The notes beneath the pieces were generated by a model that was given only the letters and a program-made list of their open reading frames with translations, had not been told where the DNA came from and ran no database searches. Made by a program: the position numbers and the translations under genes. 64,000 nucleotides of DNA from Octopus vulgaris (lineage: Eukaryota): positions 15,872,001 through 15,936,000 of the forward strand of contig OX597828.1 of the NCBI GenBank assembly GCA_951406725.2, written 5' to 3'. Positions 3,191-58,236 of this stretch are shown piece after piece. Within the stretch, counting starts at the first letter, position 1, and each line of letters starts with the position of its first letter.

Positions 3191-3282
3191 CATCTTTGAC
3201 GAGCAGAAGTATTGTCTATCAATGTGTATCAACAACGGATTCCATTATAATGACAATACTTTCATGAAACGATCGTAAGATG
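3191..3282 (+). ncRNA. Type I hammerhead-ribozyme-like motif (U3 variant), sense strand of the SFMBT intron
   Basis: Stem I CATCT/AGATG, core TTGACGA, 10-bp stem II AAGTATTGTC/GACAATACTT, then GAAAC-GATC-GTA (palindromic ACGATCGT, GUA site). Confidence 0.6.
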
Positions 3283-3536
3283 CATTAATTAACAAATTTT
3301 TAAACTGTCACGTTTCATATATTTACATTTATTTTTAATACAATACTATTTTAGACATGTATATCTTTGTGAGAAATTTTTTTGATATTAAATTTCATGC
3401 TATTATTTCAAAATGCAGTATATATAATCGCTCGTATTAATGTCTAAATACTTTATAGTATTAATATTTTTGACATTTTATACAAAGAGCACTCTTATAA
3501 ATTCAGTGTATAATATTCTAACAGAATATATATATA

Positions 3537-3888
3537 TGGCACGTAAAAAGCACCAACCGTTCGTGGCCGTTGCCAGCCTATCCTGGCACGTTAAAAGCAC
3601 CATCCGTACGTGGCCGATGCTAGTGCTGCCTTGACTGGCTTCCGTGTCGGTGGCATGTAAAAACCACCAACTGATCATGGCCATTGCCAGCCCCCCTGGC
3701 ACCTGTGCCTGTGGCATGTAAAAAGCACCCACTACACTCACGGAGTGGTTGGCATTAGGAAGGGCATCCAGCTGTAGAAACACTACCAGATCAGACTGGA
3801 GCCTGGTGCAGCCTCCTGGCTTCCAGACCCCGGTCGAACCGTCAACTCATGCTAGCATGGAAAACGGACGTTAAACGATGATGATGAT
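3537..3888 (+). mobile_element. Family E retroposon copy
   Basis: Same subrepeats and the same GAT-tailed 3' end. Confidence 0.6.
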
Positions 3889-4194
3889 TTATAAAACAAA
3901 CAAATGGAAGGAGGCATAAGTATCACATTCCTTGGTTATAACTGTTTTGGCAACATAAATGTCAGATCAATCATTTAACAAGTTGGAAAACATGAATATA
4001 AACAATGATTGTGGTTTTACTGTTTCAGTTACCACAAAACCCATATTTTGTTGAAATGGCCATCACCAAGCAATAAATGCTTGTTATTGTATGCTTCATG
4101 ACTAAAAACTGAATGGATTTTCAGTTCGTGTCTAAACACTTGCTTCTACTGAAGCATCAGTTCTTTCTATATGCTCTGTTAGCTTTCATTTACT

Positions 4195-4710
4195 GTGAGG
4201 GAGCATGACTTTGTGGTTAGGGTGTTCAGCTCACAATCGTGTGGCTGTGAGTTTGACTCCTGATGGCACATTTTGTCCTTGATCGAGACACTTTACTTCA
4301 GGTTGCCCCAGTTCAGTCAGCTGGCAAAAATGAATGGTACCTGTATTTCTAAGGGCCAACTTTGTCACATTCTGTGACATGCTGAATCTCCCTGAGAACT
4401 ACTTTAACCCTTTAGCATTCACATTGTTTTGAATTAATTGTGCATTATCTCATAGCTTTGAAATTTTGATGATGTGATTATTTATCTTTAGAATGACATT
4501 GTAGGGTAGGTGTGAGAGGCTGAATCTCATAAGTTTGAACATAAAACAAGGATAATATTCTGGCCAGATATGGCTGGTTTAAACACTAAAGGATTAAGGG
4601 TGTGTGTGTGTCTGTGGACTGCTCAGCCACTTGCACATTAATTTCATGAGCAGGCCGTTCCATTGAACTAATCAACTGGAATGATTATTGTTGTAACCAT
4701 CAGTGTCAGT
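4195..4710 (+). mobile_element. tRNA-derived SINE (family D) interrupted by a piggyBac-like MITE at 4404-4597
   Basis: GTGGTTAG head and CAGCTGGCAAAAATGA core, as at 55515-55790. The insert is TTAA-CCCTTTAG...CTAAAGGA-TTAA at a site that reads GAGAACTACGTTAAGGG in uninterrupted related sequence (e.g. reverse strand near 61870). Confidence 0.65.
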
Positions 4711-4911
4711 TTTATGTTTTTCATTTGCTGTATATGCACACACACACACACACACACTCTATACAGACCATTCTATTCCTGTATATTTGTTTCTACATAA
4801 GTCCTACGCCTGCTCTCTTCCGGCAGATTTATGACTTTGCATGTTGGTTGCTGTTATTGTTATTTATCATCAGGTAATAATCAACAGCCATCAATGAAAC
4901 GAATCATCGTT

Positions 4912-5345
4912 TATAATAATAATGAAATTATTGTATACAGTGCTCAGGTGCACCACAACTTGTCAGAAAGTGCATATAAAGTACATGCAGTAATGTAGAA
5001 ATGTCTGGAAAGTGAACAGTGTATGAGTCAGATACATGCTTGTGTGTGTATGGAGGGGAGAAAATCAGGTGTAGTGTTGGCGAATCTCAGGAAGCATGGA
5101 AGTTTTGAAGGATGCAGTGCTCCGACAACTAACAACCGATGCTGGCAGTTTGTTCCATGCTTCAGCAACTCTCAGCGTGAAAAAATGTTTCCTGAAGTCA
5201 TGGGAGCTGTGCTGTTTTCTTACTTTGTAAATATGTCCACGGGTGTTAGATGGGTGGAGTTTGAAGAGGTGCTCAGCGTTATTGTTTGTGCGATGGTTGA
5301 TAATTTTATGGGTGTCTGCCAAGTCAGCTGCCAGACGTCGGATTT
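4912..5345 (-). mobile_element. 5'-truncated CR1/L2-type LINE 3' end, antisense in the SFMBT intron
   Basis: The ORF reads ...NTRGHIYKVRKQHSSHDFRKHFFTLRVAEAWNKLPASVV, the TRGH / FFxxRVxxxWNxLP motif of CR1-group ORF2 C-termini. An (ATT)n tail lies near 4912-4925. Confidence 0.8.
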
Positions 5346-5433
5346 CATATTATGCCTTTTTGCATTGTTGAAGTAAATGAAATGAAATTGTACTCGATGG
5401 ATTAATCAATTAAAATTTTGAATCTCTTAACAG

Positions 5434-5571
5434 GAAATTGATGGTCAAGCTCTTCTTCTATTGACTCTACCCACTGTCCAGGACCACCTTGCCCTGAAAT
5501 TAGGACCAGCTATTAAATTGTGCCATCACATTGAAAGGGTGAAGATTGTGTTTTACAAATGCTACGCTTGA
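5434..5571 (+). CDS. SFMBT: SFMBT terminal coding exon, C-terminal half of the SAM domain
   Basis: CAG acceptor at 5431-5433. Translates [45 protein letters not shown], in frame with exon 2207-2368 and nearly identical to the recalled SFMBT1 C-terminus ([37 protein letters not shown]). Confidence 0.94.
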
Positions 5572-55500: not shown

Positions 55501-55514
55501 TTATATAGATACAG

Positions 55515-55792
55515 CGAAGGCATGTAGCTTAGTGGTTAGGGTAATCGGCTCACGGTCGTAAGGTCGTGAGTTCGATTCCCACCAGCGCGTTGTGTCCTTG
55601 AGCAAGGCACTTTTATTTCACATTGCTCCAGTCCACTCAGCTGGCAAAAATGAGTTGTACCTGTATTTCAAAGGGCCAGCCTTGTCACATTCTGTGTCAC
55701 ACTGAATCTCCCTGAGAACTACGTTGAGCGTAGGCGTGTTTGTGGAGTGCTCAGTCACTTTCAAGTTAATTTCACGAGCAGGCTGTTCCGCC
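55515..55792 (+). mobile_element. tRNA-derived SINE family D
   Basis: TAGCTTAGTGGTTAGG...GAGTTCGATTCCC head and GTCCTTGAGCAAG core. Confidence 0.75.
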
Positions 55793-56183
55793 AATTCTAC
55801 ACATATAAGGAAGTGTTGAAAAGTTCTTGGCTTTGAGAGTATAGCGAAAGGTCTGGTTGGAAGTGCAACCTTTCAAGTTCTTTTACAAGGCTTAGGGAAA
55901 AATGAAGGACTGCTGCAAATGAGTGTGTGAATCTGAGATGGGAGTATGTTAAATAAAATCATAATTAACCAATCCTCCTGTGTTTTCTTTTAACCAAAGC
56001 CAGAAACTTTTCATCACCCCCTTGAACATTATATATATATATATATATATATATATATATATATATATATATATATATATATATATATATGTAAGGATAA
56101 GATCGTTAATTTAAATTAAATAACGATCTTATCAAGTGGCCAGAATGGAAATAAAAACCTTCAAAGGTAATAATTATTATTAA

Positions 56184-56458
56184 AATTATAACTTAGGGTA
56201 TCTACCAGATACCGCCATGCTGAAAATAGCAGCCATGATCTGACTCTAAAACCACCTAAAGTGTTCATATAGCACAAGGAGAGAAGACAAAAAGACAAAA
56301 GAAAACTAGTAAAATTACTAGTATCCAGTAATCTTTTACTAGTTTATTTTGTCTTTTTGTCTCCTTGTGCTATATGAACACTTTAGGTGGTTTTAGAGTC
56401 AGATCATGGCTGCTATTTTCAGCATGGCAGTATCTCGTAGATACCTTAAGTTATAATT
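56184..56458. repeat. ~130-bp-arm near-perfect palindrome between (TA)n tracts
   Basis: GCCATGCTGAAAATAGCAGCCATGATCTGACTCTAAAACCACCTAAAGTGTTCATATAGCACAAGGAGA and its reverse complement. Confidence 0.9.
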
Positions 56459-57269
56459 ATATATATATATATATATATATCAAAGGCGTAGAAATGGCGT
56501 ACACTGAATGAATAATTGTCGCCGACTTTTCCTTCTTTCTCTTTGAAATTTCCTCTTTCCGACGAAGAGCTAAGCTCGAAACTTTAACAACTCTTTCCTT
56601 TCACCGAGTGTCAAATTAATTAATATATTGTTTGTGCACGTCTTCAAGTTTGTTTTACTTTATTTACCTCTGCTTTTTTAATTGTTATTCTTTGAATTGA
56701 CTAGATACATACATACATACTTATATACATACATACATACATACATATATATATGTACATGCTGACAAGGAAAGTGAGAGTAGAGAGGCAAGTTTTGTCT
56801 AGCGAATGTTTAAAAAAAGGATGGATGAATGTAGCAAGGATGGCACGTATGAATGACGAAGCCACCTTGAGCATAATTCTATGAACCCGGAAAATTTAAA
56901 ACAGAGGGTTACCTTCTTGCAAACAAATGTGGTAACATGTAACAGCATTGACCGAGGTTACCGCGGTCTTTTCCGTAGGCTTTTCTTCCCACGGATAAAC
57001 CTTATCTGCTTCCCCCTTTACACGTTACACCATGACACTGTGATACATGATCCCTATTGATCGTTTTCTTTCCCTTTTTTTCCTTTTTTTTCTTCTTTCC
57101 CTTTTACGATCCCTTTTGATCGAAAACCTAACCCACCTTTTTTTTTCTCTCCCCCAAAAAGAAAAGCTCTATTTTGTAATCTGTCCCGTCTGTGTGCAGC
57201 CCTGTGTGGCTAATAAAGAAACACACACACATACACACACATATATATATATAAATATATATATATGCA

Positions 57270-57890
57270 TATATGGGTACAGGACGTCACAAAACGTAAA
57301 TAATATGAAATACGAAGAGAAACATTTTTTTGTAAACATCGAGAGAAACAAATGGAAAACAAGACAAGTAACATAAAGAACGACCCTTCATCAGTTGTCG
57401 TCTGTTTATCTAGTCCATATTTAGAGCAATTCCCGATAATATGTGTCTTCGAGAAAGCAGTTTCTCTCGCAAACCAAGAAAATTTAGGATTTTGCGGAGG
57501 GTCAAAGTTGGTAACAAAAACAGGATAGTGAAACAAATATTGAGTGCTGCTAAGCCAGACGGGTTAAGGTGCCGAACGCCGAGGAACATTCTTTGAGAGG
57601 AGAAAAGATAGGAGAGGAGACAGACAAGAATGTGTCTTGTCTGTGCAACAGACTGGAAGAAAAGAAAGATGAACACGTGAGGAAAAATGAACGATGGTTA
57701 CGTGTGTGCAACGAGGGAGTAAAGGAGGAAGAGGGAGAGAGAGAGAGAGGGGGACAAAAAACGGTGAAGGGGAGAAAAAAGAATTAGAAGAAGGACGAGA
57801 GGGAAAAAACGAAAGAAATAAGAGGAGAGAAAAGAATTAGAGAAGGAAAGAGGAACGCCACGCATCCATTTCCAAGTAAGGTTATCTTAA
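57270..57890 (-). mobile_element. TA-anchored repeat element related to 1788-1915 (pLTR-like)
   Basis: Both share GGGTACAGGAC...TAACATAAAGAAC..CCCTTCRTCAGTTGTC. Confidence 0.45.
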
Positions 57891-58175
57891 TAATTTTGAT
57901 GCGACTCTCTTCTGTTCTCTCTTTCTCTCTCTCTCTCCCCTTTCGTTTTTTCTCTCTTCGTTTCTCTAATTCTTGTACGTGTGTATATATATATATATAT
58001 ATATATATATATATATATATATATATATATATATATATATATATATATATATATATATATATATATATATTGATAGAAATGGTAAGACAACAAAAGAATG
58101 AAAAGAGACCTCGATATTATGTAAATAGAGGAATTTATCTGTAAATGTAATATGTGATAAGTAATCGGTAGCCAT

Positions 58176-58236
58176 GATAAAACTCCGAGTTTCGGATGCC
58201 GAGGTGGAAATCCACGCCGCCATCTCTTCAGTTATC
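58176..58236 (-). ncRNA. Type I hammerhead ribozyme motif with a canonical core
   Basis: GATAA-CTGAAGA-GATG..GTGGA(TT)TCCAC..CATC-C-GAAA-CT(CGG)AG-TT-TTATC, with a 5-bp stem I, a 3-bp stem III and a GUU site. Confidence 0.65.

Follow-up and report, generated by a model that had tools for sequence, protein, structure and literature searches.

Why should a single 64-kb stretch of the Octopus vulgaris genome hold a dozen motifs resembling hammerhead ribozymes, many of them beside (TA)n runs? The stretch analysed here (the window; OX597828.1:15872001-15936000, 64,000 nucleotides, 38% GC, in which simple repeats are numerous and TA runs number about 90) had previously been interpreted from its letters alone, and this sequence-only reading listed 12 such motifs and assigned them to a diverse population of non-autonomous Penelope-like or retrozyme-like elements. 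From searches of the whole genome (2.8 Gb in 227 contigs), we conclude that the 12 motifs very probably (at roughly 85%) lie in the 3' ends, or pseudo-long terminal repeats (pLTRs), of several Penelope-like families, mostly in 5'-truncated copies of full-length elements. The earlier interpretation as a whole is partly supported: what held were the minimal type I hammerheads of Penelope-like elements, the presence of several unrelated families, the self-complementary stem III and the targeting of (TA)n.

All 12 listed sites are present, on the strands reported and with coordinates off by a few bases at most, and all belong to genome-wide repeat families with the layout of a minimal type I hammerhead. 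When the window copies are compared with their own families, no more than about four of the 12 (11999, 12703, 24709 and 58176) prove intact, and in this respect the original observation is partly confirmed. The other copies carry core lesions (U3 at 3191, U6 at 29398, C5 at 29647 and C4 at 56556), a broken stem III (16715, 39375 and 7850) or a U11.1 lesion (24891). A thirteenth, unlisted motif with a U3-A8 core was found at 1025-1062 (+). An enrichment check on the TA edges found a run of (TA)4 or longer within 170 nt on the 3' side of 9 of the 12 sites, compared with 20% of random window positions.

The 12 sites fall into seven groups, comprising A (12703, 16715, 39375 and 56556), B (29398), which is related to A, C (7850 and 58176), D (24709 and 24891), E (3191), F (11999) and G (29647). 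The estimate of at least six families stands, because C, D, E, F, G and A/B show no blastn match among one another. In A, B, C, D, E and G the majority sequence of each family keeps the core CUGANGA...GAAA...UH with a pair between positions 3 and 8, and F deviates by having C at position 9 (C9). Positions 3 and 8 covary among families (C-G, U-A and G-C). Stem I, which lay outside the search pattern, was 94% paired in 34 A/B copies, with changes on both sides at two of the four pairs; stems II and III were fixed by the pattern and carry no weight. Homodimer cofolding paired the stem III palindromes of A, C, D and G but not those of B or F, and stem III of C and of F is an imperfect palindrome. 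Inserts of 50-70 nt lengthen stem II in several families, and in family G each side of this stem carries an extra base. In the A/B alignment, GAGCG is conserved about 30 nt after the cut site (window 12703-12670 (-)), and by pairing with the stem II 3' strand it might compete with the active fold.

Taken alone, the window makes a modest case against chance. A descriptor with a short stem II matched four times (three listed sites and one likely chance match) against 1.5 ± 1.3, with a maximum of 6, in 100 block-shuffles, and requiring a palindromic stem III as well left two matches against 0.11. The strict long-stem descriptor was passed by 2 of the 12 sites (12703 and 24709), while a descriptor without the extra base after A9 gave no match in the window. 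No Rfam family reached its gathering score in the window, and no hammerhead was among the best 150 of the 243 Rfam matches by E-value; this negative result is uninformative, because Rfam also gave no hammerhead match for canonical-looking tandem motifs.

At genome scale a chance origin is excluded. A sample of forty 10-kb stretches at round coordinates (400 kb) contained 22 strict motifs, or 16 if a tandem array contributing seven of them is counted once; 12 shuffles of it averaged 0.33. A palindromic stem III together with stem I was present in 15 of 35 candidates in this sample that had been picked by core and stem II, with the stem III palindrome and stem I playing no part in the picking, compared with 0.08 of 6.25 in the shuffles. 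The comparison with shuffled sequence that had been proposed as a check gives a clear excess for the genome (22 against 0.33) and a modest one for the window (4 against 1.5). Tight patterns had 5,119 (A/B), 3,112 (F), 1,151 (C) and 61 (G) exact matches in the genome and none in reversed controls, and DNA searches gave 1,441 first-look candidates for D and 542 for E, 40 of each being scored. By rough extrapolation from the 400 kb, intact minimal motifs in the genome seem to number on the order of 10^5. The window's own families occurred 14 times in the sample, so the window is richer than average in them. Over the loci examined, with overlapping loci not removed, 173 strict matches formed 30 sequence groups, 16 of which had at least two matches.

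The motifs are tied to Penelope-like elements by what lies upstream of them. Extending the families towards open reading frames (ORFs) for reverse transcriptase (RT) and GIY-YIG endonuclease (EN), as had been recommended, reached such coding sequence (GIY-YIG, RT or both) upstream of six of the seven groups, A to F, with one or more genomic copies of each group showing the continuity. The description of the elements as non-autonomous or retrozyme-like does not fit these six families, and may still apply to G and to the short form of A. A genome search with PF01541 gave 6,136 candidates, and open frames of 781 aa were common among the 148 matches. A protein of one of the elements shares 99% identity with a protein labelled as Octopus vulgaris. 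Upstream of the motif and on its strand, RT with a C-terminal GIY-YIG domain was found in F (locus L273), A (L243) and D (L244), and the endonuclease part alone in B, C, E and H, the last being the group of the thirteenth motif. A, B and H may be Neptune-like and F Nematis-like.

Family F provides the most complete example. Locus L273 consists of an inverted truncated copy followed by a pLTR, an intact 1,312-aa ORF and a second pLTR, with the motif in both pLTRs and with tandem parts that are 99.4% identical. The 1,312-aa product matched the RT of an element with RT and GIY-YIG confirmed by Pfam (E 2e-11), its homologues carry PF00078/PF01541, and the F motif lay downstream in 18 of 20 loci found with the F endonuclease protein. 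The family A motif ends a full but degenerate RT-EN element in L243, and in L240 and L252 it follows an endonuclease and a CA-rich untranslated region (UTR). For family B there is an endonuclease remnant upstream in L009, while Hydra-like coding sequence lies upstream of C (endonuclease, L089), D (RT and endonuclease, L244/L245) and E (endonuclease, L148/L146). Outside the window's families, the same pattern is seen in the whole element L185, which has RT and GIY-YIG by Pfam, an additional ORF upstream, and a U3-A8 motif in both pLTRs. The loci L183-L190 represent a young family with many intact copies, in which a 479-aa upstream ORF overlaps the 781-aa RT-EN frame, an overlap that suggests a frameshift.

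In each family the 3' end is fixed, about 65-220 nt after the motif and usually at (TA)n. It was at TA in 23 of 30 family F copies, directly or after a tail of about 55 nt. For A, C and G, 30 copies each were taken, and among those whose end motif could be located the end lay at TA in 22 of 24 (A), 13 of 19 (C) and 12 of 18 (G), against a TA background of 9.6% per 21-nt interval. The 5' ends of F are ragged, lying from 4 to more than 1,500 nt upstream of the core, and we therefore regard the short pieces as mainly 5'-truncated copies of coding elements. An inverted partner adjoins 22 of 30 F loci, not all of which are independent, and the window sites of C (7850) and D (24709/24891) are likewise inverted insertions. 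Partial tandems forming pLTRs are present in L273-L276. The F tail, found in at least 12 of 30 copies, corresponds in many insertions to the DNA leading from the 5' pLTR into the ORF, and its two end points are at short AT-rich stretches. This fits priming from a TA nick on a template running past the nominal end, such as a circle or a tandem, and inheritance from source copies would explain the tails too.

The 5' junctions were compared with the predicted cut site. For F, 68 junctions fell in a seven-position interval at the cut against seven at an upstream control, while a downstream control offset by two bases held about 45 true junctions by hand count among the first 100 of 111 entries. 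Of the 19 junction intervals that could be mapped (30 of the 68 loci being examined), 14 cover the cut, which A-rich microhomology can explain, and none of 75 other F 3' ends started within 3 nt of the cut. In family A, 14 of 21 distinct loci (hand count, first 100 of 179 entries) join TA at -3 to +2 of the cut, and the cut region is the sole AT-only stretch in the range of the TA junctions. No tandem array holding any of the 12 motifs was found in the window.

These features are best accounted for as follows. The RT-GIY-YIG protein of full-length elements likely made the short 5'-truncated copies, and it is predicted to nick (TA)n DNA, priming copying about 65-220 nt downstream of the motif. 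The two motifs of a full tandem element would form a dimer by way of their self-complementary stem III; slow cleavage of the precursor would then leave a unit-length RNA that may circularise, as published work on such motifs leads us to expect (PMC4209133, PMC6765202). Such a circular RNA could then be the template for longer-than-unit copies, by analogy with published work on Penelope-like elements. Most genomic copies would be dead on arrival, with their motifs decaying neutrally. The parts of this account seen in the genome are the fixed (TA)n 3' ends, the ragged or clustered 5' ends, the inverted partners and the upstream coding sequence in six of seven groups; self-cleavage by the motifs is a prediction.

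Several observations weigh against this account. The F protein itself matches no Pfam family, and a Pfam search of the F, C, D and A coding pieces found nothing. The ORFs linked to families A-E are broken, and the coding links of B and C rest mainly on a single locus each. In family G the upstream DNA, low in complexity, is shared over more than 1.3 kb, and none of four long copies was found to contain an ORF. In family A, 23 of 27 copies begin 65-94 nt upstream of the core and none of 25 has an inverted partner, and simple random truncation does not predict such clustering without inversions. The dominant F core has C9, and the predicted F homodimer pairs the wrong strands.

The clustering in A and the missing ORF in G could instead mean that G and the short (about 200-bp) form of A are true non-autonomous elements, that is, short RNAs from host promoters or tandem sources, as for retrozymes, which are copied in trans by a Penelope enzyme. 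The narrow 30-nt starting zone of A is what this would produce, retrozyme-like tandem arrays with 535-bp and 359-bp units exist in the same genome, and animal retrozymes were derived from pLTRs by Li et al. 2026 (bioRxiv 10.64898/2026.07.22.740005). However, the same A 3' end closes the full RT-EN element in L243, the 5' cluster of A sits at an AT-rich stretch resembling a TA target, where microhomology could set it, and no window copy is in tandem. We consider a non-autonomous origin of these two forms unlikely, although it is the strongest of the alternatives.

A somewhat less likely possibility is that the motifs are catalytically weak or dead passengers, copied for their nearness to the priming end while transposition proceeds without cutting. 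Family F reached more than 3,000 copies with C at a conserved position, and its youngest identical copies carry it; the published activity of minimal motifs is low even as dimers (PMC4209133), and Naiad elements thrive without canonical motifs (PMC8557442). On the other side, about 30 sequence groups keep the core, the stems and the 3-8 pairing though their flanks are unrelated, which argues for selection on a catalytic-type fold, and position 17 of F varies between C and U alone. That AT-rich, low-complexity sequence produced these resemblances by chance would agree with the small excess in the window and with the absence of an Rfam hammerhead there, but the motif counts in the 400-kb sample, the stems that were not selected for and the thousands of exact copies make it vanishingly improbable. 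The reading of the motifs as the pLTR ends of mostly truncated Penelope-like elements is the one that we prefer.

Within this reading, family F poses a question of its own. Genome patterns counted 3,112 F copies with CUGAUGC (C9; the pattern leaves the following base free) and 215 with CUGAUGA (A9), and in contigs from four runs no letter other than A or C was listed at position 9. In a tree of 43 F rows, with two truncated rows left out, 8 of 10 A9 copies cluster (support 89/93) and have longer tips, and nine C9 rows are identical, two of them from near-full or full-length elements. The likely order of change is A9 and then C9, as judged from a tree that is unrooted and weakly supported. We tentatively propose, as something a little short of an even chance, that the youngest dominant lineage of F swapped A9 for C and then multiplied into the thousands, intact 1,312-aa elements among them, either with A9C functioning or with the ribozyme dispensable. 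If true, A9C would be a working natural variant absent from the cited papers, or Penelope-like transposition could proceed with the ribozyme off, in which case the ribozyme would be shown to be dispensable. Because sister lineages with A9 and with C9 share one genome, the role of Penelope ribozymes becomes directly testable. None of the papers listed by a literature search combined A9C with hammerhead, and section 8 of Perreault 2011 does not mention it, although Lunse et al. 2016/2017 or supplements to the literature may describe it.

The hammerheads of Penelope pLTRs are a known class, to which the window sequences add new families. Cervera and de la Pena (2014; PMC4209133) described genomes that each hold minimal motifs by the thousand, grouped in covarying families and mostly occurring as single motifs of truncated elements. 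Shared with the octopus motifs are the short stem I, the extra nucleotide between 9 and 10.1, the G10.1-C11.1 pair, the palindromic stem III, the many covarying families per genome, the close pairs on opposite strands and the U3-A8 variant. Unlike those hammerheads, octopus families have the 50-70-nt stem II inserts, the extra stem II bases of G, a G3-C8 core and the C9 of F. Cephalopods are not among the hosts reported in the text of that paper, which called 4,000-9,000 motifs remarkable, compared with an estimated load of about 10^5 strict motifs in octopus, the descriptors being different.

The elements resemble the EN+ Neptune/Nematis elements of Craig et al. 2021 (PMC8557442) in the C-terminal GIY-YIG after the RT, the partial tandems, the inverted truncated copies, the 3' tail and the (TA)n targets, and the CX2-5CxxC linker of that type is present in L185, L191 and L273. 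The Hydra clade of the same study also inserts into (TA)n and bears hammerheads; its CxCX5C linker was seen in the partners of C and E, its CxxC before the conserved E in C, D and E, and a clear CxH after the conserved E in D. These cysteine motifs were read from L089 (C), L146/L148 (E) and L244 (D), and not every motif is present in every piece; the octopus ORFs are broken, and the pieces start after the RWK/DKT region of the RT N-terminus.

Metazoan non-LTR retrozymes (PMC7229834; Li et al. 2026) have in common with the octopus elements a type I hammerhead, a small size and a probable dependence on a Penelope enzyme. In retrozymes as described (PMC7229834), canonical motifs sit in tandem repeats that have no link to coding sequence, whereas the elements of the window occur singly, carry minimal motifs and mostly run on into coding sequence. 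Tandem units of 150-450 bp that each hold a hammerhead, as retrozymes would have, were not found in the window, and of the seven groups G alone lacks coding continuity. For comparison, more than 6,000 motifs in 16 families have been described in coral and up to 120,000 canonical motifs in axolotl (PMC7229834). A 2026 repeat annotation of O. vulgaris (PMC13282606) includes Penelope-like elements with 31 recently active families, and its main text does not mention ribozymes. Literature searches combining hammerhead with octopus or cephalopod, and octopus with Penelope, found no description of octopus hammerheads.

What is new is an apparent load on the order of 10^5 intact minimal hammerheads in about 30 sequence groups and several Penelope lineages, all missed by Rfam. 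Many short TA-flanked repeats, which could be filed as short interspersed elements (SINEs) or unknown, are Penelope tails. The need of self-cleavage for Penelope transposition is called unclear in the cited literature, and the young intact elements, together with the natural A9/C9 pair, provide material with which to test it.

Within the window, family F is present as a 5'-truncated copy at 11433..12160 (+), in which the last 32 endonuclease codons (11434-11529; 81% amino acid identity to the 1,312-aa ORF of L273) are followed by the 3' UTR and by a motif at 11996-12040 with C at core position 9. Family A is represented by a short copy at 12600..12810 (-) with an intact minimal motif (12703-12737), a second-subfamily fragment at 16679..16828 (-) with stem III broken (motif 16715-16749), a longer fragment with a CA-rich 3' UTR at 39265..40010 (-) and a damaged motif (39371-39405), and a diverged fragment at 56481..56700 (+), whose motif (56555-56589) is also damaged. 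The short copy of family B at 29335..29532 (+) has A6 changed to U (motif 29398-29435). Family C is present as a 3' fragment with an adjoining inverted piece at 7745..7983 (-), its motif (7848-7900) being damaged, and as a short copy at 58071..58253 (-), whose motif (58176-58236) equals the family majority and has a central G-G mismatch in the dimer stem III and an extra C in stem II. The two family D pieces, an inverted 5'-side copy at 24659..24800 (-; motif 24709-24792, passing the strict descriptor) and a 3' fragment at 24804..25190 (+; motif 24893-24977), form one inverted insertion. A family E 3' fragment at 2913..3525 (+) has a motif (3191-3282) with a long stem II and with C3 changed to U in this copy, and a family G 3' fragment at 29583..29979 (-) has a motif (29647-29694) with G5 changed to C and no coding partner found. 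The group H motif (1025..1062, +; U3-A8 core, stem III ACCGGT) occurs at four other loci. A frameshifted C-terminal remnant of a GIY-YIG endonuclease at 465..580 (+; tblastn E 3.7e-05 to a genomic endonuclease; 77% DNA identity to L154/L242) forms the 5' part of a truncated element, whose end is at the TA run near 1171.

The endonuclease remnants of the window are not where they had been placed. GIY-YIG remnants had been suggested near 38.2 and 42.4 kb, but tblastn with Penelope-type proteins from the same genome gave no match there, the sole Penelope-type endonuclease matches in the window being 465-580 and 11434-11529. Degenerate coding-like stretches adjoining TA runs do occur at 38120-38520 and 42100-42540 (+); tblastn gives no support for Penelope-type endonucleases in them. 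They are possibly remnants of long interspersed elements (LINEs) and presumably resemble the C-terminal sequence of a LINE RT. The 42.2-kb frame gave no informative match in the ESM Atlas.

Other hammerheads were noticed elsewhere in the genome. About 22 retrozyme-like tandem units of 535 bp occur at L250:340-6760 and L424:3525-9410 (G000:C9, ~19.855-19.867 Mb); 12 compared units are 99.8% identical, and each unit holds an intact long-stem-II hammerhead with stem III ACAATTGT and a 7-bp stem I. Tandem units of 359 bp with a hammerhead (stem III ACCGGT) were found in a stretch picked by position, at L368:3083-4513 (+) and 7335-7694 (-). A family with a G3-C8 core (GUGAACA) and a 7-bp stem I is present at L397:3070, L397:6968 and L401:8380, with four matches among the loci examined, and no mention of such a core was found in the cited portions of the hammerhead literature.

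The window also contains repeats and frames of other kinds. A SINE-like repeat of 170-230 bp is abundant and often head-to-tail (22300-23800, 32600-33200, 44600-45250, 50900-53000 and 54990-55360). A 214-aa open frame at 49829-50473 (+) has no Pfam match and presumably resembles the C-terminus of a LINE reverse transcriptase, and a 102-aa frame at 28690-28998 (-) resembles what we take to be a Helitron/PIF1 helicase segment. A near-perfect hairpin of 89 nt lies at 31432-31520.

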